From positions 8,255 to 72,254 of the forward strand of contig JACRDO010000016.1 of assembly GCA_016212885.1 (NCBI GenBank): a DNA stretch of 64,000 nt, written 5' to 3'. Position numbers and translations under genes: made by a program. This DNA is from Elusimicrobiota bacterium (GTDB taxonomy: Bacteria; Elusimicrobiota; Elusimicrobia; UBA1565). Of the stretch, positions 1,565 through 64,000 are shown one piece after another (position 1 is the stretch's first letter; each line of letters begins with the position of its first letter). Below the pieces are notes generated by a model. The model was not told the origin of the DNA, made no database searches, and saw only the letters and a list, made by a program, of their open reading frames with translations.

Positions 1565-1566
1565 CG

Positions 1567-3539: not shown

Positions 3540-3737
3540 CGTCCAAACTTTCCACACGTCGTAGATTTGGACGTCCCAAACATCCAGACGGCGTTGGTTC
3601 GGGACGTCCCGTCCAAACCTTCCGAACGTCGCAGGTTTGGACGTATCGAACCTGCGCAGTTTGGAAAGTTCGATGCGAAGCTACGTCGTCCGGTTGTTCG
3701 GGACGTATCGAGCCTAGCCGTTTGGAAGGTTCGATGC
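3540..3737. repeat. array of REP-like GC hairpin units
   Basis: Unit type 1 is 34 nt: 3540-3573 and 3610-3643, 29/34 identical (CGTCCAAAC...TTTGGACG). Unit type 2: 3643-3676 and 3705-3737 (GTATCGARCC...GGTTCGATGC). A CGTCCCAAAC/GTTCGGGACG hairpin lies at 3572-3605. A perfect GGGACGTCCC is at 3601-3610. The last unit covers the mfd stop codon. Confidence 0.7.
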
Positions 3738-7022: not shown

Positions 7023-7030
7023 GGAATACT

Positions 7031-20272: not shown

Positions 20273-20751
20273 TATACGCCCCGGGCCTGGTACCAGAACC
20301 TGCCGTCCATCGTCTTATGGATGCAGTCGACGAAGATGATGACCCGCTCGCTGTTGTGGACGTAGCCCCAGCCGCCCGAGTCCTTCAGCCGCGCGCCGTT
20401 GATCTGGCCGTCCACGATGATGTCGGGGGGGTAGTACCGGACCGCGCCGGAGTCCTTGTGGCCGGCTGCGCCCAGCTCGACTTCCGGGATCTCGGCGATG
20501 TACTTCGGTATCAGCTCGCTGAGCTTCTCCGGGATCCGGCCCTCCGCTTGGATGAAGTCGTTGAGGCTGCGCTCGATGGCGGAAAGGCGGGAGAACGTGT
20601 GGCTCTCGGAGGTCTGCCTCTCGGAACGCTGGATATCGCTGTTGATCTCCCTGGCCGCGGGGACGCCGGCGTCCCCTTTGCTCAGGCTCCAGGAGCAGCC
20701 GGAGGCGGCCAGGAACGCCGCGAGGAACGCCTGAGACGCAAAGTGTTTCAT
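20269..20751 (-). CDS. lipoprotein, unknown function (pseudopilin-G-like motif)
   Basis: 160 aa. Lipobox LAASGC. 4-nt overlaps with both neighbours (mnmA stop, ddl start). The internal GRIPEKLSELIPKYIAEIPE stretch resembles the GspG-type pseudopilin body. Confidence 0.55.
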   Translation of the reverse strand: MKHFASQAFLAAFLAASGCSWSLSKGDAGVPAAREINSDIQRSERQTSESHTFSRLSAIERSLNDFIQAEGRIPEKLSELIPKYIAEIPEVELGAAGHKDSGAVRYYPPDIIVDGQINGARLKDSGGWGYVHNSERVIIFVDCIHKTMDGRFWYQARGVY

Positions 20752-21836
20752 AACACCTCCTCGATGGTCCCGCCCCCGAGGACCTCGTCGAAACCTTCCG
20801 AACGGCGATAGAAGACGGCCGCCTGCCCGGGGGCGATGCCCATTTCGCCCTCCTGCAGGACGACCCGGAACCGGCCGCCCAAACCTTCCGAACGGAGGGC
20901 CGCGGGGGCCAGACGGCCGCGGTGGCGGACCCGGACCAAGACATCCCCCTGCGTCGGTTCATTCCTCGTCCAGGAAAGGCTTCCAACCGTGAAAGCCGAA
21001 CGCCGCGTCTCTCTTTCGGTTCCGACCACGAGGGTGTTCGTGGCCCCGTCCAGGCGGGAGACGTAGAGCGGCTCGGGCGCCGCGACTCCCAGCCCCTTGC
21101 GCTGGCCCACCGTGTAGCAGGCGAGGCCCTCGTGCCGGCCGAGCAGCTTTCCGGATCTGTCCCGGATGTCTCCGGGTGCGAACGCCGCCGGCGCCTCCCG
21201 AAGGGCGCGCAGGCGCAGAAATTGCCGGTAGTCGTTCTTTGGGACGAAGCAAATCTCCATGCTCTCAGGCTTGTCCGCGGTTGCAAGCCCCAGGGCCCGG
21301 GCCTTCCGGCGCGCCTCGTCCTTCGAGAGCCGGCCCAGCGGGAAGATCGTCCGCGCAAGCTCCCTCTGCGTCAGGCAGTATAGAAAATAGGACTGGTCTT
21401 TGCGCTCATCAGCTGCGCGGAAAAGCCCGCATGTCCCGTCTTCCCTGCGCTCGACGCGGGCATAGTGGCCGGTCGCGACCGCATCGGCCTTCCAGTCCAC
21501 GGCCAGCTTGAGCAGCGCGGCGAACTTGACCTTCCGGTTGCACTCCACGCAGGGGTTCGGCGTGCGCCGGCTCAGGTAGTCCGAAACGAAAGGATCGATG
21601 ACAACTGCCGAGAAGAGGTCGCTGAAGTCCATGAGGCGGTGGGGGATGCCGAGCTTTTCCGCCGCCTGCCGGGCGTCCGCGGCGTCCGGGGAGGCGCCGC
21701 AGCAGCCGCGGCCCGGCCACGCCGCGGGGCGGAGCTTGAAGGTCACCCCCATCGTCTCCCAGCCGTCCTCGACGCACAGCGCGGCCGCAACGGAGGAGTC
21801 CACCCCTCCGCTCATGGCGACGATGACCCGCGCCAT
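20748..21836 (-). CDS. mnmA: tRNA 2-thiouridine(34) synthase MnmA
   Basis: 362 aa. PP-loop VAMSGGVDSSV, PNPCVECNRKVKF and GHYAR. Confidence 0.9.
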   Translation of the reverse strand: MARVIVAMSGGVDSSVAAALCVEDGWETMGVTFKLRPAAWPGRGCCGASPDAADARQAAEKLGIPHRLMDFSDLFSAVVIDPFVSDYLSRRTPNPCVECNRKVKFAALLKLAVDWKADAVATGHYARVERREDGTCGLFRAADERKDQSYFLYCLTQRELARTIFPLGRLSKDEARRKARALGLATADKPESMEICFVPKNDYRQFLRLRALREAPAAFAPGDIRDRSGKLLGRHEGLACYTVGQRKGLGVAAPEPLYVSRLDGATNTLVVGTERETRRSAFTVGSLSWTRNEPTQGDVLVRVRHRGRLAPAALRSEGLGGRFRVVLQEGEMGIAPGQAAVFYRRSEGFDEVLGGGTIEEVL

Positions 21837-22522
21837 TAGGGTTTGGTGCCGAAGAAGCCGTTGAGCAGGTCTTCATCCGGCTTGGCGGCCGGCTGGGCCG
21901 CCTCGGGGGGCTTCGCTCCGGGGAGCTCTTTCTGCTTGGGCGCCCGGGTCCCCGTGACCGGAAGGACGATGGCTTTTCGGACGCCCTCGGCGAAGATGAG
22001 CATGCCCTCTTTCTGGTCGAAATAGAGCCGGAAGGGAGACTCCTTGAGCTGGGGAGCATAGGCCTTGCCGAGGTTGTCGCGCTCCTGCTCCCATTGGGGA
22101 TTGTAGATCAGCTTCCCCCGCACATCGACCTTGCCCTTGAGGATCGGCAGGCTGAAGCGGATCCGGTAGACGCCGTTGGTGTCGCTGACCCCCGCGTCGA
22201 AAGAGGAGGTCTGGAAGGCCGCCTGACTCTTCTCGACGAATTTCTCCTCTCCCTCGGCGACGGCGCGCACCACCACGCCCTGGATGGGGTTGTCTTCGAG
22301 GTCCGTGATGACGCCGACGATGTAGCCCTCCAGGAAATTCGACTTCCTGTCGACCGACACAAACAGGTAGTCCACGGCCCCGGTGAGCCGGTCCACGATG
22401 ACCACCTGGGCCACGCGGCCCTCCGCGAAGTCCTTGAGCACGACCTTCTTGCCGCCCCTCCCCGTGCTCGCGGCGGCGCAGCCGCAGAAGAGGCCGGCCG
22501 AAAGGAGCAGCGCGGCTCTCAT
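21836..22522 (-). CDS. lipoprotein with carboxypeptidase-regulatory-like beta-sandwich, translationally coupled to motB
   Basis: The ATG at 22522 forms an ATGA overlap with the motB stop. MRAALLLSAGLFCGC lipobox. GVITDLEDNPIQGVVVRAV...TNGVYRI resembles CarboxypepD_reg. The track start at 22690 is an upstream out-of-frame extension. Confidence 0.65.
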   Translation of the reverse strand: MRAALLLSAGLFCGCAAASTGRGGKKVVLKDFAEGRVAQVVIVDRLTGAVDYLFVSVDRKSNFLEGYIVGVITDLEDNPIQGVVVRAVAEGEEKFVEKSQAAFQTSSFDAGVSDTNGVYRIRFSLPILKGKVDVRGKLIYNPQWEQERDNLGKAYAPQLKESPFRLYFDQKEGMLIFAEGVRKAIVLPVTGTRAPKQKELPGAKPPEAAQPAAKPDEDLLNGFFGTKP

Positions 22523-23262
22523 GGCGTCCCTCCCGCCGGCGGCGCCGCAGGGGCCGCGCCTTGGGCGGGCGCCTTGACGCCCTCCCCGGGGCCCGCGCTG
22601 GAGGCGGGGGCCGCGCCGGGAGAGGGCGGAGCGCCGTGCGGCGTGACCGTCTTGACGAAGAAGACCACGCGCCGGTTCTTGGCCTTGCACTCGGGGGTGT
22701 CGTTGGCCGGGCAGACCGGGCGATACTGCCCGTAGCCCATGGCCGCCAGGTACTGCGGCGAGAAGTCCTTATCCTTGATGAGGTACTCCACGACGGTCGT
22801 GGCCCGCGCGGAGGAGAGCTCCCAGTTCGAGCCGAAGTACTCGTCGTTGATCGGGACGTTGTCCGTGTGGCCTTCGACCACGATGTCGAAATTCTTCGAA
22901 AGGTTCTTGATCGTCGGAGCGATCTGATCCAGGATCGAGAGCATCCCGGCTGTGACATCGGCCTTGCCGCTCGCGAAGAAAGCCATGTCCCCCTTCTCCT
23001 GGATGCTGATCTTCATGCCTTCCCGGTCGATCTTCACGTCGATCTCGGCGTGGATGTTCTTCTTCGCCTCCTCGACGTCCTTCACCGCCTGCTGGACGTC
23101 CTTGTTCAAGACGGCCGAAAGGGCGTAGAGGATGACGAAGAAGCAGACCATCTCCGTCATGAGGTCCGCGTAGTTGACGAGCCAGGGCGGGGCCGGGTGG
23201 CCGATCTGGCAGACCTTGGGGTCGCTCTCGTCGATGAAGCCCTTGGGGGCGCGCAGGGGCAT
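22519..23262 (-). CDS. motB: flagellar-type stator protein MotB (OmpA-like peptidoglycan-binding)
   Basis: 247 aa. TM segment with the proton-binding Asp (WLVNYADLMTEMVCFFVILYAL). OmpA_C-like region (EGHTDNVP...NWELSSARA...NRRVVFFV). Confidence 0.8.
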   Translation of the reverse strand: MPLRAPKGFIDESDPKVCQIGHPAPPWLVNYADLMTEMVCFFVILYALSAVLNKDVQQAVKDVEEAKKNIHAEIDVKIDREGMKISIQEKGDMAFFASGKADVTAGMLSILDQIAPTIKNLSKNFDIVVEGHTDNVPINDEYFGSNWELSSARATTVVEYLIKDKDFSPQYLAAMGYGQYRPVCPANDTPECKAKNRRVVFFVKTVTPHGAPPSPGAAPASSAGPGEGVKAPAQGAAPAAPPAGGTP

Positions 23263-23265
23263 GGG

Positions 23266-24078
23266 CTATTTCCTCTCCTCTTCCTGCCCCTTCTTCTCCT
23301 CTTCGTGCCCCTTCACCATGACCCGCTGGGAGGGCTCGAGGTAGGCCTTGAGGTTCGCCTCCACCACGCGAGGGGTCGCTCCGCTCTGGAGCAGGAGCAC
23401 GCCGCGGATGACGATCTCCTTGACGAGCAGCTCCTCCTCCGAGCGCCTGCGGAGCTTGCCGCCCATCGGCAGGAAGATGAGGTAGCCGGACCCGAGCCCG
23501 TAGAATGCGGCGGCCAAGGCCAGCGCCATCCGTTTGGGCACCGCCTGGACGTCGCTGATCGAGTTGAGCATCAGCACCATGCCGAGGACCGTCCCGATGA
23601 TGCCGAAGGCCGGGGCGTAGGTGCCCATGGAGTTGAAGATCTCCATCCCGATCTTGTGGCGCTCCCGGATGAAGCCGATCTCCGTCTCGAGCATGTTGCG
23701 GATGAACTCCTGGTCCGAGCCGTCGATGACGTGCTGGATGCCGCGCTTGAGGAAGTCGTCCTTGATGGCGTTTACGTCGGCCTGCAGGGCCAGGAACCCG
23801 TCGCGCTTGGCCTTGTGCGCGAGCGAGACGAAGGTCGCCACGAGGCCGGAAGTGTCCTCGCCGCTCTGGGTGAGGACCTTCCGCAGGATCCTGCCCAGGC
23901 CCACCACCTGTTTGAGCGGGTAGTTGACCAGCGTGGAGCAGAAGGTGCCGCCCATGACCAGCAGGAGGGCCTCAATGTTCGCGAAGGGCACGAAGCCCGC
24001 CGGTCCCTCTTGATAGAGGATGGCGGCCACCGCCAGGCCGATGAACACCAGGATGCCCATTACGGTGGCTATGTCCAT
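23266..24078 (-). CDS. motA: flagellar-type stator protein MotA (MotA/TolQ/ExbB channel family)
   Basis: 270 aa. Four-TM layout, a cytoplasmic loop KAKRDGFLALQ, and the C-terminal channel region GTYAPAFGIIGTVLGMV...AFYGLGSGYLIFLP. Confidence 0.85.
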   Translation of the reverse strand: MDIATVMGILVFIGLAVAAILYQEGPAGFVPFANIEALLLVMGGTFCSTLVNYPLKQVVGLGRILRKVLTQSGEDTSGLVATFVSLAHKAKRDGFLALQADVNAIKDDFLKRGIQHVIDGSDQEFIRNMLETEIGFIRERHKIGMEIFNSMGTYAPAFGIIGTVLGMVLMLNSISDVQAVPKRMALALAAAFYGLGSGYLIFLPMGGKLRRRSEEELLVKEIVIRGVLLLQSGATPRVVEANLKAYLEPSQRVMVKGHEEEKKGQEEERK

Positions 24079-24106
24079 AATCGTTCCTTATAATGACAAG
24101 TCAGGC

Positions 24107-24331
24107 TCACTCTCTTTTGTAGCCTTCTATGGGATTTCTCACGGGCCTTTCGGCGTTGACCCGCTTGCGGTACTCTATCACCTTTCCCACGACCTCGTCC
24201 ACAGTCTCCTTGACGAGGTAGCGGTTGTTGGTGGCCAGCGAGATGACGGTGTTGGGGCACGCCTCTACCGCCTCGATGAGCTCTGCGTTGATCGTGATCT
24301 CCTGGCCGTTGAGGCGCGTAACCTTGATCAT
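24107..24331 (-). CDS. flbD: flagellar protein FlbD
   Basis: 74 aa. MIKVTRLNGQEITINAELIE...NTVISLATNNRYLVKETVDEV is the FlbD signature. It lies immediately upstream of motA, as in spirochaete/Firmicute-type operons. Confidence 0.8.
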   Translation of the reverse strand: MIKVTRLNGQEITINAELIEAVEACPNTVISLATNNRYLVKETVDEVVGKVIEYRKRVNAERPVRNPIEGYKRE

Positions 24332-26112
24332 GCCTTCTCCTCCGGCCCCACCCTGCGCCCCAGGGCGCTGATGCGGGACTTGAGCCTCTCGATCTCCTCG
24401 GCGCTCCTCTTCTGCTGGAGCTCGTAGGCGGCCCGGAGCTTGTTCCAGTTCTCCCGTTCGGCGCTGAGCGCGGCGAAGCGCCGCTCCTCAGCCGCGGCCT
24501 GTGCCAGGGCCCCGCCTACGGCGCCTTCGAGCTGGCTGAGCCTCTCGCGCAGGGCCGCGGCCGTCTTCTCCTGCTCGGCCCGATCCCGGGCAGCGGCGGC
24601 TTTCCATTCCTCCTCCACCGCGAGGCGCGAGCGCAGCTCTTCATACTCCTGCCGGAGCCGCTCAAGCTCCTGGGCCCGCTTGCGGGCCTCCTCCTCCGCG
24701 GCCCTGCGGGCCTCCTCCAAGCGGCGCAGCTCCTGCCGGCCGCCTTCGATGGACGCGGCGAGGCGCTTTATGAGTTCCTCCTCCAGGCTTGCGCGCACAA
24801 GCCGCATCTGCTCGGCCTGCTCGCGCCGGCAGTCGGCCCGGACAACCTGCGCGGCGGCGAGGAGCCGGCTCTGCAGCTGCTCCTGCGCGCAGGCCTTGAT
24901 GCGCGCCTTCTCGGCTGCGAAGCGCTTCTCGGCGTCCGCCGCCGTCTTGGCGCGGATCTCGGCTTCCCGGTCCTGCCACTTGCGCTGCAGGACGATGAAC
25001 TCGGCCTGGTACTTCTCGTTGATCCTCTGCATCTCATCCTTGGCCTTCTTCGCCTCGTCGGCCTGCGCGCGCAGGGCGGCACTCTGCTTCTCGAGCGCGC
25101 CTCCCACGGCCCGCATCCTCTGCAGGGCTGCGCCCGCGAGCTCCGCCTGGGCGCGCGTCTTCTTCAGCTCGGCCTCGTGCTCGACGTTCAGGCGCCGGAT
25201 TTCCTCCTCGCGCTCGGCCGCCAGGCGGCTCGCGACGCTCATCAGCTCGCCCTGCAGCCTCTCGTTGTCGGCCAGAAGCCGCTCCTCGCGCTCCCGCGAG
25301 CCCGTCCTGAGCGAGTGCAGCTCCCGCTCGAGCCGCTCCTGCGCGGCCCGAAGCCGCTCCTGCGTCATCGCGAGCTCGGCTTTGACCTGGGTGAGCTCCC
25401 GTTCGCGCTCGGCCGATGCGGCCGCCTGCGCTTGAAGCCGGCCGTTGGCCTCGGCGAGCTGCGCGGCGCGCTCCTCGACGGCCTGCTTCTCCAGGAGCGC
25501 CTTGCGATGCTCCAGGTCGATCCCCTTGAGGCTTTCAGCCAAGGCCTTGGCCTGGCGGCTCTCGTCTTCCTTGGCGCGGATGAGCCGCTGCCAGTGGGCC
25601 TTCTCCTCGAGCCAGCGCCGCTCGATGTCCTGCAGGCGCAGGGAGAACTGCGCCTCGACCTCCCGGTCCCTCGCGTCGCGGATCTGCAGCTTCTGCTGGA
25701 GGGTCCCAAGCAGGGTCTCGCGCTCCTGGACTAAGCGCTCCTCGAGCTCCCGGACGCGGGCTTCGAGCTTGAGCTTCGTCTCCTCCATCTCCGCCTCGCG
25801 CCGCTCCCGGCGCAGCTTGTCCTGCACATCCTTGATGGAGAGCTCGACGCGGCCGGCGATTTCGGCCTCCTCCTTGGCCTTCAGGCTTGCGAGTAGGACC
25901 TTCTCCCGCTCCTCCATCAGGCGCTTCTCGAGCAGGGCGATCTTCCTTTGCTGGTCTAAAGTCGGCGCCGCGGAGCCCGGCGCGGGCGGCGCGCTTGGAA
26001 GCGCCGTCCTCTCCGGCGCTTGCGGTTCTCCGCTCGCCGGAGAGGGCCTAACCAGGGTGTACGCGCCCGGAGGCAATGGAGGACTAGGATTGCGCCTGGA
26101 TTCCTCAGCCAT
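24328..26112 (-). CDS. 594-aa coiled-coil protein with Pro-rich N-terminus, unknown function
   Basis: After about 55 Pro/Ala-rich residues it is almost continuous E/R/A/L/Q heptad-like sequence. A 4-nt overlap joins it to flbD. It sits where fliH/fliJ lie in flagellar operons. Confidence 0.7.
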   Translation of the reverse strand: MAEESRRNPSPPLPPGAYTLVRPSPASGEPQAPERTALPSAPPAPGSAAPTLDQQRKIALLEKRLMEEREKVLLASLKAKEEAEIAGRVELSIKDVQDKLRRERREAEMEETKLKLEARVRELEERLVQERETLLGTLQQKLQIRDARDREVEAQFSLRLQDIERRWLEEKAHWQRLIRAKEDESRQAKALAESLKGIDLEHRKALLEKQAVEERAAQLAEANGRLQAQAAASAERERELTQVKAELAMTQERLRAAQERLERELHSLRTGSREREERLLADNERLQGELMSVASRLAAEREEEIRRLNVEHEAELKKTRAQAELAGAALQRMRAVGGALEKQSAALRAQADEAKKAKDEMQRINEKYQAEFIVLQRKWQDREAEIRAKTAADAEKRFAAEKARIKACAQEQLQSRLLAAAQVVRADCRREQAEQMRLVRASLEEELIKRLAASIEGGRQELRRLEEARRAAEEEARKRAQELERLRQEYEELRSRLAVEEEWKAAAARDRAEQEKTAAALRERLSQLEGAVGGALAQAAAEERRFAALSAERENWNKLRAAYELQQKRSAEEIERLKSRISALGRRVGPEEKA

Positions 26113-26137
26113 GGTGTCTCCTCATGATCGAACCTTC

Positions 26138-28123
26138 CTAGGTCGCGGGACTCTCCTTCATTTGCGCCTTATAGCTGTCCAGCCAAGACCTCAGGCTCGG
26201 GTCCGGATTGTAGGAAAGGGCCTTCTCATAGTACATCAGGGCCTCGGGGATGCGGCCCATCTGGAAAAGCTCGGACCCGAGGTATTGGCAGGCCTGCCAG
26301 AGGTCCGGATCGTGCTCGATGGCCTGGCGGAAGCACCGGACCGCCTCGTCGAGGTTGCCGGCCTCGTGCTGCTCGAGGCCCGCGTCGAAGCAGCGGCGGG
26401 CCTCGGCGGCATCGATCCGCGCCGTCTCCTCGGACTTGCTCGGCGCAGCCGGCTCGGCCGCAGATTCCTCCTTGCGGCCCGCCGGACGGCGGGACGACGT
26501 CGCAAGGACGTCTTGGAAGCCCTCGTCCTCAACCTTCGGCCGCACCGCGACCTTGCCGTCCTTCTCCATGGCCTTGATCTTGTCCAGGATCTTCGTGCGC
26601 TCGTCCTCGGCTTGCGCCGGCGTGACGCCCTGGGAGTACTCCATGGACTCCTTGAGCAGAGAACCGGCGCCCTCCGACATGTTGGCGAAGAACTTGCTGG
26701 CCACGTCCGGCGGCGCTCCCATCAGCGCGCGGGCCATATCGTCCGGCTGGAGCTCCCGGATGATGGTCTGCATGTCGCGGTCCGGGAAGTTCGCGATATC
26801 CTCGAAGAGCAGGACCCTCTTGCGGACGCGCTCGTAGACGGCGGGTTTCTCGTTCTTCAGGTATTCCAGGATGTTCGCCCGCGTCGGCGTATCGGCTTCT
26901 TCCAGCATCTGCGTCAGGCGCTCTATGCCGCCGACCAAGAAATTAACGCTCTCCTTGATGTCGGAATCGATGGCCGCCACCTGCTCGCGCGTGCACTGGC
27001 GGACCATCAAGGCCTCCATCGCCACCTTGGCCTGCATCCCGACCGGCAAGGCCATGAGAACCTGCCGGGCGTACTCGGGCCGGAGATAGCTCAGAACGAC
27101 CGCGATGAGCCACGGCTCCTCGCGGCGAAGCAGGAACAAAATGACCAGGCGCTTGAGGTTCGTCTCGTTGATGTAGGAGAACCATTGCGACATATCTTCC
27201 TCCTCGGAAGCCGGCGGCTTCTGGCCGAACATGACATCCAGCTTCCCCTCCCCCGGCCCTCCCGCTCCTCCCGCTCCTCCCGCGCCGCCTTTGCCTTCCC
27301 CCTCCGGAGGCTCGATGTTCGACTCCACGTTGATCTGGGCGGCGGGCTTCTGGGCGATGGCCTCCACGTACCTGCGCATGAAGCCCGCGAACGGGAAGAA
27401 AAGGAATAGGAGCAGGAGAAGCAGGAGGGCCGCGTAGAGCAGGGGCAGGTAGACTTTGGGCTCCTTGAGGTCGTCCATCCAGTTCTTGTCCGCGGCCGCG
27501 GAGGACTGATGGTACTTCATCTTCTTGAAGGCGACGTCGTCGGGCACGAGCTTGGCGGCGCCGCCGGCGTCCTTGTACTTGGCCATGGCCTCGACGATGA
27601 AATCCCGAACGTCCTTGATCTTTTTGTCGTCCACCCGGCTGTCGTGGAAGACCGTCACCTTGAGCTTCCTGAACACCAGGTCCTGGGCGTAGTACTCCTC
27701 CTGCTCGGACTTCGTCTGCGACGCGGACTGCCCCACAGCCGCCTCGGGCCTGGGCTTGGCGGTGATGTTGGTGATGTTCTTGGGAGTCGGGACCCCCGGC
27801 AGGGCCCATTCTCTCCCCATCCCCTGCCCCTTCTCGCCCTTCTCTTTGTACTTCTCGGCGATGCCGGCGCCTTCCTTGGCGTTTTCGCGGCGCTGGGCTT
27901 TGACCTCGATCTCCACGTCGGCGAAGACCGTTCCCTTGTCCTTGCCGAGCATGGGGTCGAGGATGTCCTTCTGGATTCGCGCCTCCGCGTCCTTGATGAT
28001 GTTCTCGCGCCACTCGATGAGGGTCAGCTTGGGGGTCTCCAGGACATCCAGGGATGCGCCGCGGCGCGCCGGAGCGGCAAGGGCGAGCGCGGCCAGCGCG
28101 GATATAACAAGTCTTTTTGTCAT
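26138..28123 (-). CDS. mini-FliF / FliG(middle+C-terminal) / TPR fusion protein (rotor-like)
   Basis: 661 aa.
- Signal/TM1.
- A periplasmic region of about 200 aa with ring-building-like beta strands (GTVFADVEIEV, FRKLKVTVFHD).
- TM2 (aa 224-248).
- A Gly-rich linker.
- FliG_M-like REEPWLIAVVLSYLRPEYARQVLMALP.
- FliG_C-like VLLFEDIANFPDRDMQTIIREL...FFANMSEGAGSLLKESME...ILDKIKAMEKDGKV.
- C-terminal TPRs (LDEAVRCFRQAIEHDPD, ALMYYEKALSYNPD). Confidence 0.75.
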   Translation of the reverse strand: MTKRLVISALAALALAAPARRGASLDVLETPKLTLIEWRENIIKDAEARIQKDILDPMLGKDKGTVFADVEIEVKAQRRENAKEGAGIAEKYKEKGEKGQGMGREWALPGVPTPKNITNITAKPRPEAAVGQSASQTKSEQEEYYAQDLVFRKLKVTVFHDSRVDDKKIKDVRDFIVEAMAKYKDAGGAAKLVPDDVAFKKMKYHQSSAAADKNWMDDLKEPKVYLPLLYAALLLLLLLFLFFPFAGFMRRYVEAIAQKPAAQINVESNIEPPEGEGKGGAGGAGGAGGPGEGKLDVMFGQKPPASEEEDMSQWFSYINETNLKRLVILFLLRREEPWLIAVVLSYLRPEYARQVLMALPVGMQAKVAMEALMVRQCTREQVAAIDSDIKESVNFLVGGIERLTQMLEEADTPTRANILEYLKNEKPAVYERVRKRVLLFEDIANFPDRDMQTIIRELQPDDMARALMGAPPDVASKFFANMSEGAGSLLKESMEYSQGVTPAQAEDERTKILDKIKAMEKDGKVAVRPKVEDEGFQDVLATSSRRPAGRKEESAAEPAAPSKSEETARIDAAEARRCFDAGLEQHEAGNLDEAVRCFRQAIEHDPDLWQACQYLGSELFQMGRIPEALMYYEKALSYNPDPSLRSWLDSYKAQMKESPAT

Positions 28124-28133
28124 GCGCGACTAA

Positions 28134-28162
28134 AGTGTAAAGCTAATATGTTACGTTTTCAA
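28134..28162 (-). promoter_or_regulatory. putative sigma70 promoter of the rotor-stator cassette
   Basis: The minus strand reads TTGAAA (28157-28162), a 17-nt spacer, then TACACT (28134-28139), in the only AT-rich pocket upstream of the ATG at 28123. The -10 ends only 10 nt before the ATG, so the mRNA would be nearly leaderless. Confidence 0.3.
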
Positions 28163-28166
28163 TACA

Positions 28167-28252
28167 AGCCGCCGAGACGGGCGAAGCCCGTCGAGTGCTC
28201 TTTTGGAAACATGAGACAGAAGCTGAGGCGGCATATGGGAGCCTTCTCGACG
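28167..28252 (+). repeat. intergenic repeat A, copy 1 (GC hairpin + TTTTGGAAACATGAGACAGAAGCTGAGGCGG tail)
   Basis: About 86 nt, identical to 28300-28385 except for one base. Hairpin GACGGGC-GAA-GCCCGTC at 28176-28192. Confidence 0.85.
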
Positions 28253-28299
28253 GAATGTTTCCAAAATACCCGCGATTCGCTGCGCTCATCGCGGGGGAC
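28251..28299 (-). repeat. intergenic repeat B, copy 1 (hairpin CCCGCGAT/ATCGCGGG + TATTTTGGAAACAT on the minus strand)
   Basis: 49 nt, identical to 28450-28498. Confidence 0.85.
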
Positions 28300-28385
28300 A
28301 GCCGCCGAGACGGGCGCAGCCCGTCGAGTGCTCTTTTGGAAACATGAGACAGAAGCTGAGGCGGCATATGGGAGCCTTCTCGACG
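28300..28385 (+). repeat. intergenic repeat A, copy 2
   Basis: See copy 1. There is a single A/C difference in the hairpin loop region. Confidence 0.85.
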
Positions 28386-28451
28386 TCCCAAACATCAAAG
28401 ATACGTTCGTTTGGGACGTCCCGAACCTAAGCCGTTTGGGTGTTCGGGACG
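28384..28451. repeat. twin 10-bp-stem hairpins sharing a central GGGACGTCCC
   Basis: CGTCCCAAAC (28384-28393) pairs with GTTTGGGACG (28409-28418). CGTCCCGAAC (28417-28426) pairs with GTTCGGGACG (28442-28451). Each has a 15-nt loop. Same motif family as 3540-3737. Confidence 0.75.
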
Positions 28452-28458
28452 GAATGTT

Positions 28459-28494
28459 TCCAAAATACCCGCGATTCGCTGCGCTCATCGCGGG
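28459..28494 (-). terminator. rho-independent-type terminator of the PorV-like gene (repeat B, copy 2)
   Basis: 8-bp GC stem (28468-28475 with 28487-28494) and an 11-nt loop, starting 3 nt after the TAG at 28498-28500. On the minus strand it is followed by TATTTTGG. Confidence 0.6.
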
Positions 28495-28497
28495 GGA

Positions 28498-30084
28498 CTA
28501 GAGCCGCTTGAGGAACTCGGCGACGACCTTGTCGGTCGGGTCGATCTCCAGGACACGCTTCCAGACGGCCTTGGCCTTGGCCTTCTCCTCCATCATGAAG
28601 AAGGCCGAGCCCATGATCTCCAAGGCCGTGATGTTGTTCGGCTCCAGATCGAGGACGTCCTGGGTCCGGCGGATGGCGAGGTCGTACTTGCCGTCGTAGA
28701 TGGCCTGGCGGGCGTCGTAGAGCTTCTGGTCCACAAAGGTGAACTGCTCGGGGCCCTCGACGCGGCGCGTCATCTCGCTCACGCCGGCCTCCTTCTCCAC
28801 CAGGTTCAAGAGCCCCAGGACATTCTCCTCTTTGGAATTCTTGTTGTAGGCGTAGCGCAGGGCGTTGACCGAGCCGCGCAGGTCCCGGCCATCCACGTAG
28901 GATATGACGCCCTTGCGCACGTAGGTCTGGAACTCCTCCCCGCCCAGGGCCTGGGGGACGCGGCTGACGATGATCTGGAGCCGGCTGACCATCGCCTTGA
29001 CCTGCTTGTTGTTCGGGGAGGCGTCGAGGGCCTGGTTGAGGCGCAGCGCCGCGAGCTGGAAGTCCCCCTCCTTGAAGGCTTCATAGCCCTGCTCGATGAG
29101 CAGCTTCACCTGGCCGGCCGAGCGGTCCTCGCGCGAGCGGCCGAAGCGGTACCCCACCGAGACGCGCATGCTGGCCGGGTTATCGCTGATCCCGAGCACG
29201 TGGATCCCCTCCGCGATGTCGAGCTGGAGGCGCTGGAAGCGGAAGCCGATGCCGAAATCCGTCTCCTGTATCTCCGGCGCCGCCAGGACTCCGAACCGGA
29301 AGGCGAACCACCGCGCGACCCAATACTCGCCGCCGAAGCGCCAGTTGATCTCGGCTGCCTGGGATTTCGCGATATCCATGCCCAGCAGCAGGCGCTCCTT
29401 GAAGAGGCGCAGGCTGTTGCCGATCTTTATGACGACCGGGTACTTGTCGTCCGTGTCGCCGCTCGTCATGCTGAACACGTTCTGCATCCCGACCGCAAGC
29501 CGGTAGTAGGGGCCTATGATCCGCATGACCGCGACGTCCAGGGCGTTGGTGCTGTCCGTGGAGGCGTCGAGCTGGCGGGTGACCCGCTTGAGCGAGATGC
29601 CGAACGCCGTGGTCTCCGTCGCCTCCTTGCCCCAGGAGAGGATATGGGCGCTCTGCTGGTCGCTGAATGAGTTATTCAGCGATTTGTTGAACTCGTCGAC
29701 CTTCTCGAAGCCCTTGGATGTGAGCATCGTCATTCCATATGCGAAGGTGCCTGCCATGGCCGTCGGGTGGGCGTAACCCAAGCAGTTCAGTGTGGTCTGC
29801 TCCCACAGCATCGCCGACATAAACGAGGCTTCCTTGCGCTGAAGGTAGGCTAAGCCCGCAGGGTTCCAGTACGCGGCCGTCGCGTCGTCGGCGATGGCGT
29901 AGAAGGCCCCGCCCATGCCGAGGGCTCGGGCCCCGACTCCATATTGGAGGAACTGGCCCGGCTGGCCGCCCGACTCGCCCTGGGCGAAGCGCGGGAGCGC
30001 CATTATGAAAACAAAAAGCCCGCAAGCGGCGGCGCGCGCCGCCCCCATGGGCTTGCCTGCGACTGCGTATCTATCGGCCTTCAT
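28498..30084 (-). CDS. PorV/PorQ-like outer-membrane beta-barrel protein fused to C-terminal TPR repeats
   Basis: 528 aa. Signal peptide (…GLFVFIMALPRFAQG). The hallmark GARALGMGGAFYAIADDATAAYWNPAGLAYL is that of the PorV/PorQ/UPF0164-type barrels, followed by alternating beta-strand sequence. The last 200 aa or so are TPR (FQLAALRLNQALDASPNN, YDLAIRRTQDVLDLEPNN, AVWKRVLEIDPTD). The start could instead be the Met at 30048. Confidence 0.75.
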   Translation of the reverse strand: MKADRYAVAGKPMGAARAAACGLFVFIMALPRFAQGESGGQPGQFLQYGVGARALGMGGAFYAIADDATAAYWNPAGLAYLQRKEASFMSAMLWEQTTLNCLGYAHPTAMAGTFAYGMTMLTSKGFEKVDEFNKSLNNSFSDQQSAHILSWGKEATETTAFGISLKRVTRQLDASTDSTNALDVAVMRIIGPYYRLAVGMQNVFSMTSGDTDDKYPVVIKIGNSLRLFKERLLLGMDIAKSQAAEINWRFGGEYWVARWFAFRFGVLAAPEIQETDFGIGFRFQRLQLDIAEGIHVLGISDNPASMRVSVGYRFGRSREDRSAGQVKLLIEQGYEAFKEGDFQLAALRLNQALDASPNNKQVKAMVSRLQIIVSRVPQALGGEEFQTYVRKGVISYVDGRDLRGSVNALRYAYNKNSKEENVLGLLNLVEKEAGVSEMTRRVEGPEQFTFVDQKLYDARQAIYDGKYDLAIRRTQDVLDLEPNNITALEIMGSAFFMMEEKAKAKAVWKRVLEIDPTDKVVAEFLKRL

Positions 30085-30246
30085 GTTCGGCAGCCTGACC
30101 TCCCCGCCGCGGCGGGAATCTTGGCTTTGCGCCCCCGGCTTGCGCCGGGTTTGCCGTTATCGCCCGATGAACGGAACGCTCTCGGCGCGCGTCATCACAG
30201 CCCCGGTCCAGCGCGCCGCATCCGACATCGGGATCCTGCTATTCCA

Positions 30247-30275
30247 ATTATAACAGGCGCATCTTGACTTGTCAA
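30247..30275 (-). promoter_or_regulatory. perfect-consensus sigma70 promoter upstream of the PorV-like gene
   Basis: The minus strand reads TTGACA (30270-30275), exactly 17 nt, then TATAAT (30247-30252). This predicts a 5' UTR of about 155 nt before the ATG at 30084. Confidence 0.6.
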
Positions 30276-30276
30276 G
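30263..30276. promoter_or_regulatory. 14-nt palindrome overlapping the -35 box (operator-like)
   Basis: CTTGAC-TT-GTCAAG has perfect 6-nt arms and covers the -35 hexamer. Confidence 0.4.
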
Positions 30277-30298
30277 GCCTACGAGCAGGCTTGCATGT

Positions 30299-30362
30299 CC
30301 CGCCTCAGCTTCTGCCTCATGTTTCCAAAAGACCCGCGATTCGCTGCGCTCATCGCGGGGGG
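30299..30362 (-). repeat. chimeric repeat: B-type hairpin joined to A-type tail
   Basis: The minus strand reads CCCGCGAT-loop-ATCGCGGG, then TCTTTTGGAAACATGAGGCAGAAGCTGAGGCGG. The hairpin is identical to repeat B. The tail matches repeat A with 2 mismatches. Confidence 0.8.
30323..30359 (-). terminator. rho-independent-type terminator of the giant gene
   Basis: Stem 30333-30340 with 30352-30359, starting 3 nt after the TAG at 30363-30365, followed on the minus strand by TCTTTTGG. Confidence 0.6.
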
Positions 30363-33300
30363 CTAATGTATAACCCCGATCTTCCTGATCGCGGTCTTGG
30401 AGCCGGCCTTGATGCGCGCGATGTAGCCGCCCTTCGACACCAGGCGGCCCATCCCGTTGCGGCCGTCCCACGGGACTTCGTTCTTGCCGACCCTGCCGCC
30501 AGGCGTCCCCTTAGGGCATGATATCGAGCGGACCACGTAGCCGAGCAGGTCGTAGATCGTGATGGTCACGTCGGAGTCCTCGCCGAGGACGTAGACGATC
30601 TTGGTCCCGCCGCTGCGTGAATCGAAGGGGTTGGGGTAGTTCGACACCTGGGTGATGCCCGGTTCCGGCAACGTCATCACCGAGATCGACTCAGTTTCAG
30701 CGGACCACGAGGAAGCGACGCCCGCGTAGTTGAACGCCCGCACGCGGTAGCTGAGCAACTGGCCCGACTGGCGCGGCTGCTCGGCCGGGTTGCTTGCCGG
30801 GTTGCCGACGTGGTAGGCGTTGTTGGCCACCCCGCCGGTCTTCACGGCCGTGATCGCGCCGAGGGAATGCCAGACCGGGTCGGTGCCGCTCAGCTCCTGG
30901 ATCTCGTAGAGCATCACGTTGGATTCGTCGTCGCGCGAGGCGTTCCAGGTCACGACGAAGCTCGCGCCGGAGGCCTGCCCCGGCGGCACCAGCGACCGCA
31001 CCGCGGCCGGAGAGGTGGGCGGCGTGGTGTCGATCCGGTAGATGATGAGGGGCCGGCCGGACTCCGACGGGATGTAGCCTGTCGGCGCGCTGACGGGGCC
31101 CGTAAAGGCGCGCACCGAGACGAGGGCCATGCCGTCCGAGACGAGCTCTCCGGCCAGGTGCTGCTGCGGCAGTGTGCCCAAGCACCCGCGGCCGGTGGCG
31201 CCCGGGCACCCGATCTGGCCCGGCAGGACCTGGAACTCCGTGTTGCTCACGCGCAGCGCGCCCACGATCTCCGAGCCGATGACGAGCTTGCCCTGGTTGA
31301 AGAAAATCGAGGTATCCTCGACCTTGATCGAAGCGTCGCTCGGCCCGAAGGGCTGCGCCAGGCGGGTGATCTTCGGCACCGGCAGGGCCAGGCCGGTCAG
31401 GGTCCCCGAGGTCACCGAGCCGACGTTCCTCCAGCCGAAGGTGAAGGACTCGTACTTCTCGAAGCTCTCCCCCACCGCGATCTGATAGCCCGTTATGCCC
31501 TGCGTGGAGGAGGGGATCGGCCACGAAAGCCCGAGGCTCGTGCTGTTCGAGTTCCAAGCGGACATCGCCAGGCCCTGGTCCGAGATCGGCATGGCTTTGC
31601 CGTCCTTGTCAACGATGAAGTACACCGGGTTGCCCTTGCCGTCGTCGACCACCTTGTCCGGGATGTTGTCGTTATTGATGTCCAAATCCAGCAGGCCGTC
31701 GCCGTCCACGTCCACCGAGGGCTTGTCCGAGCCGATGAGGCTGATGAACTGCCGGCGCCCGGTGTTCAGGAAGTCGAAGTTGTCCGGCGAGCCGTCATTG
31801 TTGATGTCCACGAGCGGCTCATTCACCGCGGGCTGGCCCGGCGCCGCGGCCAAGGCGGAGGCGCCCGAGGACTTCCACGGCTTGCCGTCCTTGCCGATCC
31901 ACTTCAACGAGTCGCAGACCGGGCGGCCGGTTTCCGTGGAAATCTTGACGCGGCCGGCTCCATCGCGCTTGACGATGCAGGGGTAGCCGAAGCACGGCGA
32001 GCCGGAGCCCTTGCAGGGATGGGTTCCGTCTTCGCCGACGTCCGCGATGGTGATGGTCGGCAGGATCGAGGAGAGCGGGATGATCGCCGTCGAGATGCGC
32101 ACCAGGCTCGATCGGGCCGGGAACTGCTTCTCGTTGGATGAATGGGAGGCCGCGGTCAGCTCGGAGGAGTTGGGCCCGAACATGTCCTCGAAGCGCTCGA
32201 TCGAGAAGCCGATCTGGTCCCCGATCGTGGCGCGGCCCGCCAGGTCCACCGTCGAGACGTCGCAGGCGAAGAAGACGTTGACCGGCGTCGTCGTCACCAT
32301 GAGGAAGGGGACGCTGGAGACGCTCAGGTCCACGAGGGCGGTCCCGCCGCTGAACTGCCCAGAACCGCCCGGGAAGCCGAAGTGCGTCAGGGCGCCGATC
32401 AGCTTGTCGCTGTTGGGCGTGAAGGCGCTGTCCCCGTTGTCAAGCCAGACGCTCAAAGATCGGGCGTCGCCCTGCCCGACGGCCGTGACCGGATACCTCT
32501 CCTGGACCGTGCCCAATTGGGTCAGCTTGAGCTGGGCGATGCGCACGAAGTCCGAGTTGACGCTCATCGTCACCTGCCCCAGCGCCACGTTGGTCTGGCC
32601 GCCCATCGCAGCGGAGGGCGCGAGGTTGCGCGACTCGAACCTCAGCGTCAGCGGGGTGATGTGGACCTTCGAGCCCCTGAACGGGAACTCGCCGGTCATA
32701 GTCCCCCTGGCCTGGAGCTTCGAGACGTTCAGGCGGATGCCGGGGGAAACGTCCTTGGGCGCGAGGACCCCGACCCAGGACTTGTCGATGATATCGACGG
32801 AGAGCTCGTCGTTCTTGACGGCCGTGGCGCCGACGTCGTAAGTCAGGAAGAAGACGCCGGCCGTCGGCGAGATCGTCTGCTGGACCGAGAGCTCGACGAC
32901 CAGCTGGAGGTCCTGGTCGTTGAGCTGGTTGAAGACGTCCACCTTGCGCACGCCCGCGCCGGCCGCGTGGGCGAGCGTGGGCGTGGGCCCGCCGCCCAGG
33001 ACGTCGCCGCGCGATAAGATCGCCAGGGTCGGGTAGAGCGCGCCGCCGATCTGCGTCGTGCCGTAGCCGCCGCCGAAGGTCATCAGCTCGGTGTTCCCCA
33101 CGTAGATGCGGCCCTGGCCGTTTACGGGGAATCCCAGCGTGGAAGCGACGACCAGTGTGAAGGGCGCCGTCTGGTTGGAGGAGACGGCGCCGTAGGGGGG
33201 CAGGGTGGAGCCGGAGATGACCAGGGTGTTCGCCTCCGAGACGTTGAGGTCGTTCTCGTCTAAGACGTCGTTCTGGTTGATATCCTTCCAGAGGCGCACG

Positions 33301-60300: not shown

Positions 60301-63300
60301 TAATTGTCCGAGGCCGAGCCGGACGACGTGGCCAGGGAGTTGACGGGCTGAAGGAGGGTGGGCCAGACGATGCCGGACTCCGGCTTGGTGAAATCCCAGG
60401 TGAACGGTTTCGGTGTGAGGCTGCTGTTGCCGGCCGCGTCCTTGGCGATCAGCTGGGCGGTGTACTGCCGGTTGGTCTCGAAGGCGGAGCCGTCAACGAA
60501 CTTCGCGTGGGTGTAGCTGTACGTGTTGAGGCCCGCGGGGGAGGCCGGAAGGCAGGTGATGTCCTGGAAGCTCACGCAGTCCACCGCGGAGACCGTGAAG
60601 GTCGAGGCGTTGTCCCAGAACTGCTCGGTGGCGCCCTGCATCCTCTTGACCCGGAAATAGGCCGTCTTTGGGGCGCTATAGGGCGGGTCCTGCGCGTCGT
60701 CGGTGACGGTCCCCGAGAGGGCGGGAAGATAGTTCTTGTAGTTCACATCGGGCATGAAGATGCCGGCCACAGGAGCGGCATTGTCGATCCAGAACTCCCT
60801 TGGGCCCATCGGTGGGTTCTCCGTGGGACTGCCCTGGGCCTGGGACCACATCCTGTATTTGTGCAGGCTGGCCCATTTGCCCGCGGGGATCGTGAACACC
60901 CAGTCCGGAGGCGCGGAGTAGTCCGCGGGCACGAAGCTGTCGAAGCCGGCGCCCGGCACCGGGTAGGTGGACTTCCACAATTGCACGGAGGGGTCGTAGC
61001 AGAGGTAGCTGTCGTTGGGCTGGCCTTGGCCGATGTCGTAGAGCTTGACCCACACACCGGTGGCATAGGGGACGTTCGCGGTCCCGCGCAGGGCCGCGGC
61101 CGCGGGTCTGTAGAACGGGGTCCCGGCGATCGGCTGGCTGATCGTAGACGCCGGGCCCGGGGAGGTGAAGGAGAAGCTGACCCGGTTCGTGTTCGCCAGC
61201 GCGCTCCCCGGCCGGGCTTCCATGTTCGCGGCCTTGTCCGCGGCCGCGGCCAGGATCTCGTAAATGTTGCCGTTTTTCCAGTCCGGGGTGGAGACCCCTG
61301 TCGTCAGCCAGTTCACGGGGATGGAGGTGTCCGTGGTCGCCTCGACCCAGTAGGCCGAGCCCGCGCTGGGCGCATCAGGAGGCTGGGCCCCGTCGGTCCC
61401 GGAGAATAGCTTGGTGGTCTTGTCCCACCAGCCTGGGCCGTTGGTGGTCCTGCGGTAGGCCACGAGCACGGTTGAGACCCCCGAGGGACCGTTGTCCACG
61501 GACGTGCCCCGGACCGCGGGGAGGGTTGAAACCGGGAACCCGTGGGGCGGGACCGTGATAATGGAGGTCGGGGCCTGGAAATCCGCGGCAAAGGTGACCG
61601 TGGAATACTTCAAGTCCATGTTCGATGCCTTGTCCACGGCCCGGGCGTTGGCCGTATAATTGACCGCGGTGGTCCATGCGGCTGTGGACAGGAACCACGT
61701 CCATGGCCCGGGCGCGCTTCCTGAAAGAACGGCCGCGCTCCAGGTCTCACTGGTCGCATCCACAACCCAGTCCCCGGTGGGCCCTTGGCTCATTTTCAGG
61801 TACTTGTTGTCTGAGTCCCGCTTGATCCGTACCTCGACCTGCCCCACCTCGCCCTTGGCCTTGTCCGTGGCGTTGCCGGACACGTTGGCGCTCTGCGCGA
61901 TGAAGCCGCCGCCCAGCGGGAAAGTGATGGTGGCGGTGGGCCTGGTGATGTCATAGACAAAGGTTGTCCCGGCGTTGCCCGCGCCGCCGCCCTCCCGATT
62001 TATTGCCTGGTCCTCCGCGCGCGAGATGATCTTGTAGTTGCGGCCGTCCACATAGGTCGGGTTGGTCAAAGTGTAGGTCCAAGGGGCGATGCCGGTGACC
62101 GGCATCCAGAAGGAGGTCTCCTGCCAGGCGACCGTGTTCCAATACGTGGACGCGCAGGTGAGGTCCTGGACCATGATCTTGACGTCGCTCACCCCGGAGC
62201 CGGCCGGCGTGTCCCAGGCTGTCCCGGTGAGGGTTAGCAATCCGGGGGTGGCGTTATAGAAGCCGGGGGAGGCCGGCGGCGAGTTGACCATGGACTGGGG
62301 CGCCGAGACGTCGTACTTCCAGGTGCTGGAGGTGAACACCGTTTGGACGTTGCCCGCCACGTCTACGGCCCGTGCGATCACGTCGTAGGTGAAATCCGCG
62401 TTGAAGGGGACCAGCGCGGAGCTCCACGTCCAGGTTCCGCTCGTGATGCTCGGCAAGGCCAGTGTGAAGTTGGCGTTGAGCCAGATCGCGGTCGGATCCG
62501 CGGGTGTCTTGTAGGTCCAGCTCGAGGGCAGGGCCGGGTTGAAGTCGTTTGAGTCGTTTACGCGGCGCAGGCGGACCTGGATCGTGGCAGCGCCGGAGTT
62601 GAGCTTCAAATTGTCCGAGGCCGTGCCTGTCATCGTGGCCAGGCCGTTGTAGGCCATGCCGTTCTGTGGGATGCTGGTCCAAGCGGTCGGCTTCGCCGTG
62701 TCGAAATAGATGCCGACCTGGGCGGCCGCCCCCTGGTTGTTGCCGGAGGCCGTGTTGTCCTGGGCCCTGGCCTTGATGGTGTAGGCCCTGCCGGTCCCCC
62801 AGATGCTGCTTGCGAAGGAATAACTCCACGTGGCGGAGGTCCCGCTCAGCGAGAAGTTCGAGTCCGCAAACCACTGGTCTAAGCCCGCGGCCCAGCCGTC
62901 GCCCGGGTTGGTCGGGGTCCAGCCCCAATTGTCGTCGCGGTTTATGGCAACCTGCCCGTTTGCGGGCGTGCTGTAGTAGTCCATCGCGGTCCCGCTGATG
63001 GCCGGCAGGGAGTTATAGGTGTTGCCGTCAATCGGCACGGTGATCACCGTCAAGGGACCCAAGGTGTCATAGCGGAAGGTGTGGCTGTTGTTTAAGGCCG
63101 GGTCCGAGTAGTTCAGGCGAGCCGGCGCGTCCTCCGGATTGCCGGCCTTGTCTATGCCCTTGGCGCGGACGTTGTAGACCTTGCCGTTGGCCCAGGGAGG
63201 CACGTTGGAGAATGTCCAGGTGTAAGTGGAGGGCATGGCCGCGGGGTTGAAGTACTCCGTGGTCACCCAGGTGCCCGAGGTGATCCACCAGCGCCAGTAG

Positions 63301-63974: not shown

Positions 63975-64000
63975 GTCCAGGCCGGGGACCCAGGCGCCGT

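Follow-up and report, generated by a model that had tools for sequence, protein, structure and literature searches.

In the present study we analysed a 64,000-nucleotide stretch of DNA (contig JACRDO010000016.1, positions 8,255 to 72,254; hereafter the window), assigned by the names of its homologues to Elusimicrobiota, and found in it a seven-gene operon that looks like a flagellar-type motor reused for a cell-surface job. Our preferred reading, to which we give a probability of about 60%, is that the operon, found phylum-wide in Elusimicrobiota, encodes an envelope machine which works independently of a flagellum and either derives from the flagellar motor or is related to it. The cassette is conserved and appears to specify a hitherto undescribed machine of flagellar derivation; the PorV-like outer-membrane barrel opens the motor operon, preceded by a promoter and a riboswitch of its own. 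A giant surface-protein gene lies upstream, and it shares the minus strand with the barrel and all cassette genes. Read from its 5' end, the operon comprises a promoter, a cyclic di-GMP (c-di-GMP)-I riboswitch, the barrel with tetratricopeptide repeats (TPR), a FliF(RBM3)-transmembrane-FliG(MC)-TPR fusion (RBM, ring-building motif), a coiled-coil protein, FlbD, MotA, MotB and a lipoprotein, with the following features:

30247-30275, minus strand: sigma-70-type promoter, TTGACA-17-TATAAT with extended TG, 12 of 12 consensus matches
30086-30165, minus strand: c-di-GMP-I-class riboswitch aptamer (RF01051, RF03167), its 3' end abutting the barrel ATG
28498-30084, minus strand: first operon gene, PorV/PorQ-family (UPF0164, FadL-like) outer-membrane barrel with a C-terminal TPR part of about 200 aa
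26138-28123, minus strand: rotor-like fusion protein of 661 aa (Pfam FliG_M, FliG_C and TPR; 1LKV alignment)
27458-28054, minus strand: periplasmic domain of the fusion, aa 24-222 (AlphaFold2 model and Foldseek)
26540-27193, minus strand: FliG middle and C-terminal domains of the fusion, aa ~311-528, with FliM site and torque helix altered
24328-26112, minus strand: coiled-coil protein of 594 aa, at this position in all loci
24107-24331, minus strand: FlbD (PF06289, 87.6 bits), start overlapping the coiled-coil stop (ATGA)
23266-24078, minus strand: MotA stator subunit (MotA_ExbB, 98.5 bits)
22519-23262, minus strand: MotB stator subunit with plug (MotB_plug, 47.7 bits) and OmpA-like peptidoglycan-binding domain (OmpA, 56.5 bits)
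21836-22522, minus strand: all-beta lipoprotein, with a lipobox in its sequence, present in all loci; start overlapping the MotB stop (ATGA)

The operon is conserved. Wherever a locus offers enough DNA, the genes for barrel/TPR, FliG/TPR, coiled-coil protein, FlbD, MotA, MotB and lipoprotein follow one another in this order on a single strand (tblastn; about 70 species), and gene calls in two relatives give the same seven-gene order. A scan of one genome per GTDB species yielded 71 cassette loci, most of them titled Elusimicrobia or Elusimicrobiota and a few simply 'bacterium'. Homologues of the fusion protein number 314 at E≤0.001, and the 120 of them that were listed are mostly full-length and 45-73% identical, and their organism-level names are all Elusimicrobia/Elusimicrobiota or 'bacterium'. 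Invariant columns are numerous in every cassette component, with MotA identity across loci reaching 58-87% (70-87% in full-length matches). All the parts that an earlier, sequence-only reading of the window had listed are indeed present, and the cassette is, as that reading had it, devoid of export, rod and hook genes, and of switch genes as well: no gene for a type III export gate, rod, hook, filament or FliM/FliN occurs in the window, nor within 10 kb on either side in the two relatives. The three transcription units it had proposed, however, have to be redrawn, since barrel and cassette form one operon in the ~70 species, and the promoter and riboswitch between the giant gene and the barrel had been missed.

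The rotor-like protein looks like a natural FliF-FliG fusion. Its layout, taken from 19 aligned family members, consists of a signal or anchor, a conserved domain of ~200 aa, a transmembrane (TM) helix, a linker, FliG_M, FliG_C, a further linker and TPR; the TM helix is invariant and carries basic residues on its C-terminal side, and the linker that follows is acidic and Pro-rich. FliG_M (PF14841) scores 42.6 bits against a cut-off of 25 and FliG_C (PF01706) 87.6 bits against 23.3, and the FliG part aligns to Thermotoga maritima FliG_MC (1LKV) with an E value of 3e-32. FliG_N is absent, because the alignment to full-length FliG of Aquifex aeolicus (3HJL) begins at residue 119; the FliG_N match of 23.8 bits stays below the 25-bit cut-off and covers the M-domain region only, and the place of FliG_N is occupied by the TM helix and linker.

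The AlphaFold2 model gives the periplasmic domain an alpha-beta-insertion-beta-alpha-beta topology, with a predicted local distance difference test (pLDDT) score of 82-90 in the core blocks and a mean of 65; the ~65-aa low-confidence insertion is placed where FliF has its beta-collar. The top 11 Foldseek matches in the PDB are all FliF of the MS-ring (membrane and supramembrane ring), mostly its RBM3/collar/S-ring, the best at E 7e-5 and the others at 0.012-0.1. We therefore propose, with moderate confidence and as a model-based assignment, that the domain has a fold of the FliF RBM3/collar type, which together with FliG_M and FliG_C upholds the mini-FliF/FliG fusion suggested by the sequence-only reading. 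A single domain stands here between the N-terminal anchor and the TM helix, whereas FliF holds RBM1-RBM2-RBM3 between two TM helices.

On the stator side, MotA is closest to the MotA of Clostridium and Bacillus (C. sporogenes 6YSF, E 6e-50). We counted interface residues over 58-73 family members, with torque-helix positions in Escherichia coli numbering. The equivalent of MotB D32 is kept in 58/58, that of MotA P173 in 59/59 and that of MotA P222 in 58/58, so that, judged by these residues, the ion path of MotA/MotB looks intact and the stator looks functional. The position of MotA R90 is K in all 61 members (charge kept) and that of its FliG partner D288 is E in all 70, while the position of MotA E98 is Q in 59/61 and that of its FliG partner R281 is G in 68/70; altogether, the FliG positions K264, R281, D288, D289 and R297 read Q, G, E, S/A/T and T. 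Of these two charge pairs, then, one is retained and the other has disappeared from both partners, which argues for a working, specialised interface without a switch complex and against decay; the reciprocity of the losses indicates co-evolution. The EHPQR motif for FliM docking, furthermore, is replaced by E/D-E-P-W, with E at the H position in 69/73 and W at the Q position in 73/73.

These residues bear directly on the thought that the cassette is simply the fliF/fliG-motAB part of an ordinary flagellum, the remaining genes of which lie elsewhere in the genome. It is true that FliG_MC, FlbD, MotA and MotB are true homologues of the flagellar proteins, and that a few Elusimicrobiota have been reported with complete flagellar sets (bioRxiv 10.1101/2022.07.08.499144). 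But the fusion has one RBM3-like domain in place of RBM1-3 of FliF, lacks FliG_N, carries the altered docking motif with its invariant W, and ends in a TPR tail where FliM/FliN would dock; moreover, the cassette always travels with the PorV-like barrel, and most carriers are without flagellar structural genes in surveys (bioRxiv 10.1101/2022.07.08.499144; PMC11257099). Because of this architecture of fusion and cassette, we consider an ordinary flagellar role very unlikely indeed, to the point of being hardly credible.

Orphan genes of this kind have been seen before. Uzun et al. (bioRxiv 10.1101/2022.07.08.499144) recorded that most free-living Elusimicrobiota carry motAB, flbD and fliG without structural flagellar genes and called their role 'enigmatic', and another account describes flagellar machinery as absent from the phylum and its isolates as non-motile (PMC11257099). 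The genes of Uzun et al. are the same as ours, with the same lack of flagellar structural genes; theirs, however, are a list of KEGG hits, and neither the operon nor its FliF-FliG fusion, PorV-like partner, riboswitch and altered interface were described. A 2025 survey of how MotAB evolved makes no mention of the present case, and in the literature on Elusimicrobia with type IX secretion systems (T9SS) or c-di-GMP riboswitches we found no description of the operon, only the passing note of Uzun et al. What had already been noted, then, are the orphan motAB/flbD/fliG genes, and what is new here are the operon, the fusion, the PorV-like partner, the riboswitch and the altered interface, in line with the sequence-only reading, for which no system of such composition had been described.

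The operon is preceded by a c-di-GMP-I aptamer that scores 60.5 bits with RF01051 (gathering 35, E 2.4e-9) and 58.2 bits with the GGC-variant model RF03167, just below its gathering threshold of 59. An aptamer of the same clan (CL00126) sits in the same place in seven of seven other loci tested, five of them RF01051 and two RF03167, whether the giant gene is upstream or not. With a covariance model built from eight copies, 64 of 73 sources each gave a single match, always immediately 5' of the barrel gene; in the other nine the upstream DNA is missing, so that all 64 loci holding that DNA are positive, and the same model found no further copies in 1.26 Mb. In the alignment the fraction of paired cells is 96.7%, while slid-partner controls reach 48% at most, compensatory changes on both sides occur at 14 of 21 base pairs, and the canonical core GCAAAGCC is kept in all eight aligned copies. 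The consensus promoter lies between the giant stop codon and the aptamer, ~80 nt 5' of the latter; shuffles would be expected to give 0.8 weak matches.

A start codon in frame with the barrel ORF (open reading frame) lies 1-7 nt past the conserved CCGAA in 55/56 loci, and the space between aptamer and ATG is too short for a terminator. The ribosome-binding region therefore falls within the 3' half of the aptamer, which points to direct translational control; the sequence arrangement suggests a translational rather than a terminator-type switch, with a predicted polarity, of low confidence, of OFF at high c-di-GMP. In many loci a GGGG(C)-loop-(G)CCCC hairpin is conserved ~15-25 nt past the barrel ATG (for example L051 8289-8350 and L066 8378-8440), and GCCC/CCC is conserved directly after the ATG, although the peptide encoded by the first ~60 nt is variable. 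This suggests that an expression platform at the RNA level may extend inside the barrel coding region.

The barrel itself passes the family model NF033709 (93.3 bits, cut-off 90), in keeping with the PorV/PorQ-like barrel with a TPR tail that had been placed downstream of the giant gene. It also matches UPF0164 (22.7 bits, cut-off 21.4), has a weak FadL-type match, and at its C-terminus matches TPR_2 and TPR_19. With 32.9 bits for PorV (250 required) and 50.9 bits for PorQ (220 required) it stays below the equivalog cut-offs, and no PorP/SprF model is among its NCBIfam matches at E≤0.01. At the family level, therefore, the analogy to SprB and SprF drawn by the sequence-only reading fails. SprA/Sov, PorK/L/M/N (GldK-N) and PorU are likewise absent from the window and from the inspected flanks of the two relatives.

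The coiled-coil protein has no Pfam or NCBIfam match and no TM helix; its relatives are mostly ~480-890 aa long, and the N-terminal ~200 aa are conserved. The lipoprotein, whose stop codon overlaps the mnmA start, is a member of a very small family, of 55 clusters in a library of 1.84 billion representatives. From an alignment drawn from matches in this representative library we obtained a confident AlphaFold2 model, all-beta with a mean pLDDT of 83; its profile gave only chance matches against the PDB, and Foldseek against the PDB gave no significant fold match (best E 0.04, all generic beta-sandwiches). Downstream of the cassette, mnmA and another small lipoprotein are often encoded. This second lipoprotein (20269-20751, 160 aa, no Pfam match) stands just after mnmA and in the same place in ~45 loci; it may be an eighth co-inherited component, or merely a case of conserved gene order.

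The barrel and its surroundings would also suit a different role, in which the cassette energises outer-membrane transport or envelope maintenance in a manner like Ton or Tol-Pal, be it uptake or the handling of lipids or hydrophobic substrates through the FadL/PorV-like barrel, or outer-membrane tethering tied to cell-wall growth. The UPF0164 and weak FadL-type matches speak in favour of it, as do the position of the operon amid mnmA, ddl, PBP1A and alr, where stop and start codons overlap, and the TPR domains on both membrane partners, which recall CpoB/Tol. On the other hand, the known transducers are ExbBD/TolQR with TonB/TolA and not MotAB with a FliG domain and FlbD; no TonB/TolA-like protein is encoded in the cassette; and control by a c-di-GMP riboswitch is atypical of housekeeping envelope functions. 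We consider this role unlikely.

Directly upstream of promoter and riboswitch lies the giant gene, with its terminal domain:

30363-64000, minus strand: giant surface-protein gene, open at the window edge, with internal repeats and with orthologues in relatives
30366-30640, minus strand: C-terminal T9SS type-A/FlgD-Ig-like sorting domain (TIGR04183, FlgD_ig), its motif kept in orthologues

The giant ORF meets no in-frame stop as far as position 64000 (11,211 codons), which agrees with the protein of at least 11,203 aa announced by the sequence-only reading. Its orthologues measure 13,962-14,004 aa in a relative whose fusion protein is 73% identical, and therefore the window truncates the gene. 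Residues ~100-5,700 form divergent repeat modules with weak Ig-like Pfam matches, residues ~5,700-7,600 a second type of repeat, and the last ~3,500 aa show no repetition detectable by BLAST; a search for tandem repeats at the DNA level found none in this gene, the repetition existing at the protein level only. The C-terminus is of the T9SS/FlgD-Ig type, as had been claimed, with TIGR04183 (T9SS type-A sorting domain) at 26.9 bits (cut-off 23) and a weak FlgD_ig match at 23.3 bits (cut-off 27), and the motif ...YIARIKxGS...IRKIGVIH of this C-terminal domain (CTD) is highly conserved among the orthologues.

The giant gene forms a transcription unit of its own and is not part of the one under riboswitch control, because the consensus promoter of the operon lies between its stop codon and the aptamer. 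In 12 species loci and in the window, the gene that stops immediately upstream of the riboswitch is longer than the ~8 kb of available upstream flank (>2,300 aa could be read); on shorter contigs only the last 190-530 aa are visible. When placed on a neighbour-joining tree of the fusion protein, the giant gene adjoins the cassette in 13/14 informative loci of one clade, which is deep (FliG identity down to 42%), and in 0 of ~46 loci of the other clades, where succinyl-CoA synthetase or other genes are found instead. The shared neighbourhood envisaged in the sequence-only reading consequently holds for the fusion, motAB and barrel, collinear in ~70 species, and fails for the giant gene outside this one clade. 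A search with the CTD returned mainly short FlgD-Ig proteins and fragments in Elusimicrobiota, many of them small and unlinked. Among these are two stand-alone FlgD-Ig/CTD-like proteins of 146-168 aa on long contigs (L076 10001-10507 and the equivalent JGI contig), which share a conserved neighbourhood of HNH, ACT-domain, def and histidine kinase genes that is unrelated to the cassette; because of this the CTD is not specific to the giant protein or to the cassette locus.

Such an arrangement invites the idea that the motor secretes or propels the giant CTD adhesin, that is, an SprB-like gliding or adhesion system made from flagellar parts with the barrel as dedicated adhesin partner. In T9SS, PorV binds CTD cargo, and here a giant gene ending in a T9SS type-A domain stands directly upstream of a PorV-family gene; the adjacency has been kept throughout the deep clade, and a motility or adhesion device would suit c-di-GMP control. 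Yet the ~46 species elsewhere keep the riboswitch and the full cassette without an adjacent giant gene, often with succinyl-CoA synthetase upstream, the riboswitch-controlled unit excludes the giant gene, many small unlinked proteins bear a CTD of the same type, and the barrel is not PorP/SprF-like. In addition, cultured Elusimicrobiota are non-motile (PMC11257099). Since most carriers have no giant neighbour, a gliding adhesin cannot be the general function, and we rate this explanation as doubtful, while a gliding-adhesin model may apply to the giant-gene clade. A facultative tie of the motor cassette to the giant adhesin seems plausible.

How would a flagellum-independent envelope machine work? 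Stator units of the MotA5B2 type, anchored to peptidoglycan by MotB and assisted by FlbD, would use ion flow to push FliG_C of the fusion. The fusion in turn would oligomerise, by means of the RBM3-like domain in the periplasm, to give a small inner-membrane rotor resembling the MS-ring. From there, force or movement could reach the TPR tail of the PorV-like barrel by way of the periplasmic ring or collar and the lipoprotein, with a cell-surface process as output; the most likely output would be the handling, display or movement of T9SS-type CTD proteins, and in one clade the neighbouring giant adhesin would be such a cargo. c-di-GMP would directly control translation of the first gene, the barrel. 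Taken as a whole, this amounts to a free-standing rotary machine, a FliF-FliG ring turned by MotAB/FlbD, without type III export or axial structure, switched by c-di-GMP at the RNA level, coupled across the periplasm to a PorV-like barrel, and moving or displaying CTD surface proteins that include adhesins of ~14,000 aa. We advance this complete picture tentatively, with clearly less confidence than the more general statement made at the outset.

Several points weigh against our preferred reading and should be told together. The periplasmic-domain model is a medium-confidence monomer (mean pLDDT 65) with TM-scores up to 0.47, and a profile search of this domain against PDB sequences gave no match even at E≤10, because of which the link to FliF is one at the level of fold and of moderate confidence. 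Ring formation, rotation and output of the machine are what we infer, and it is by gene order that the inner-membrane parts are tied to the barrel. Since the operon continues into the housekeeping genes mnmA, ddl and PBP1A, with alr also nearby and with overlapping stops and starts, conserved gene order is by itself weak functional evidence. Complete flagellar gene sets do exist in the phylum, if only in few members (Uzun et al., bioRxiv 10.1101/2022.07.08.499144). Finally, four of the five classical torque-helix charges are gone from the fusion, and therefore the stator interaction could differ or be absent.

This last point, together with the loss of MotA E98, would suit a non-rotary relic, with the cassette serving as a scaffold or an ion-channel-based sensor and not as a motor. 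A relic of this kind is, however, difficult to reconcile with the very high conservation of the cassette (MotA 58-87% identical, many invariant columns per component), with the intact ion path and the charge pair kept on both partners, and with losses that are reciprocal and thus indicate co-evolution over decay. We regard it as quite improbable.

The proposed envelope machine can be set beside several known systems. It resembles the flagellar basal-body core in FliG_MC, in the probable periplasmic fold of the FliF RBM3/collar type and in the flbD-motA-motB order, as well as in the equivalents of MotB Asp32 and MotA Pro173/Pro222, the peptidoglycan-binding MotB and one conserved charge pair; FlbD/SwrD also accompanies the flagellar motor in Firmicutes and spirochaetes. 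Unlike in the flagellum, FliF and FliG are joined in one polypeptide, which has only one RBM and lacks FliG_N as well as the FliM-binding motif; the TPR tail stands in place of the C-ring; the operon has no export-gate, rod, hook, filament or switch genes; and the partners are a PorV-like outer-membrane barrel and a unique lipoprotein. With T9SS and the gliding machinery of Bacteroidota it shares an overall logic of motor, outer-membrane partner and surface cargo, namely an ion-driven inner-membrane motor encoded with a PorV-family barrel, and type-A CTD proteins including, in one clade, the giant repetitive adhesin next door. It differs from them in that its motor is of the MotAB/FliG type and not GldLM/PorLM, and in that its barrel lies below the PorV/PorQ equivalog thresholds, bears a TPR tail and is not PorP/SprF-like.

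As for regulation, a class I c-di-GMP riboswitch precedes the flgB operon of Clostridioides difficile, and the Elusimicrobiota leader is like it in placing a class I c-di-GMP aptamer ahead of an operon with motor-type genes; unlike in C. difficile, the aptamer here reaches right to the start codon, the operon is a non-flagellar one, and some copies score best with the c-di-GMP-I-GGC model. ExbBD-TonB, TolQR-TolA, AglRQS-Glt and ZorAB (5:2 ion-driven) likewise employ a stator-type motor for an envelope task other than swimming, but their stators come from other subfamilies and they have no rotor with a FliG domain, whereas in the present cassette a true MotAB/FlbD stator is retained together with the torque domain of FliG. 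To our knowledge, torque of MotAB on FliG is known inside flagella only.

Between barrel and fusion the window holds one further element:

28167-28498, strand not given: inserted repeat element, MITE-like (miniature inverted-repeat transposable element), two ~133-bp tandem copies that are 99% identical; not part of the machine

Because of the insertion of this duplicated ~133-bp repeat, the gap between the barrel and fusion genes measures 374 nt in the window, against ~60 nt in the two relatives. Repeat families D3 and D5 and inverted pairs I1 and I2 define the element, an inverted copy of which begins at the giant-gene stop codon (30282-30363); a palindromic hairpin related to it, GACGTCCCAAAC...GTTTGGGACGTC, recurs at 3570-3611. 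The element holds a terminator-like hairpin and a weak promoter-like site.

The window has a G+C content of 64-70% over most of its length and of 57-62% at 10-18 kb. Between PBP1A and alanine racemase, in a stretch of 57% GC, an IS66-family transposase and a DruA/DUF4338-domain gene (14100-16651) look like an insertion; the two genes are also close together in the nearest relative. We rejected a Druantia defence system at 14.1-15.1 kb, since in spite of the DruA Pfam match the PADLOC hit is weak (E 6e-4) and partner genes are absent. A minus-strand ORF of 935 aa at 10.8-13.7 kb was rejected as a gene as well, because it is plus-strand ORFs that carry the genuine domains (PMT_2 glycosyltransferase, B12-binding radical-SAM enzyme, alanine racemase). 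Two ORFs have long N-terminal extensions without a family match, hemC (7031-9028, 665 aa), where the deaminase domain begins only at residue 338, and pdxA (608-1831, 407 aa), where the domain begins at residue 147; either their starts have been mis-set, the DNA being GC-rich, or additional domains are fused to them. In one relative a group II intron catalytic domain (RF00029, 51.9 bits) was found downstream of the cassette (L009 18588-18668).

What emerges is an orphan rotor-stator operon, conserved and regulated in a phylum reported to be without flagella and wired by gene order to an outer-membrane barrel of the T9SS family, which offers a concrete answer to the 'enigmatic' orphan mot and fliG genes of Elusimicrobiota. 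The universal c-di-GMP riboswitch offers an experimental handle and would tie the machine to surface-lifestyle decisions. More generally, the cassette provides a natural, minimal setting in which to ask what the rotor-stator pair of a flagellum can do without an export apparatus or filament, and it bears on the evolutionary assembly or dismantling of the flagellar motor. If the free-standing rotary machine is true, it would constitute a further class of ion-driven envelope machine, representing either a radically reduced flagellum or a survivor of the sort of rotor-stator module out of which flagellar motors were built.

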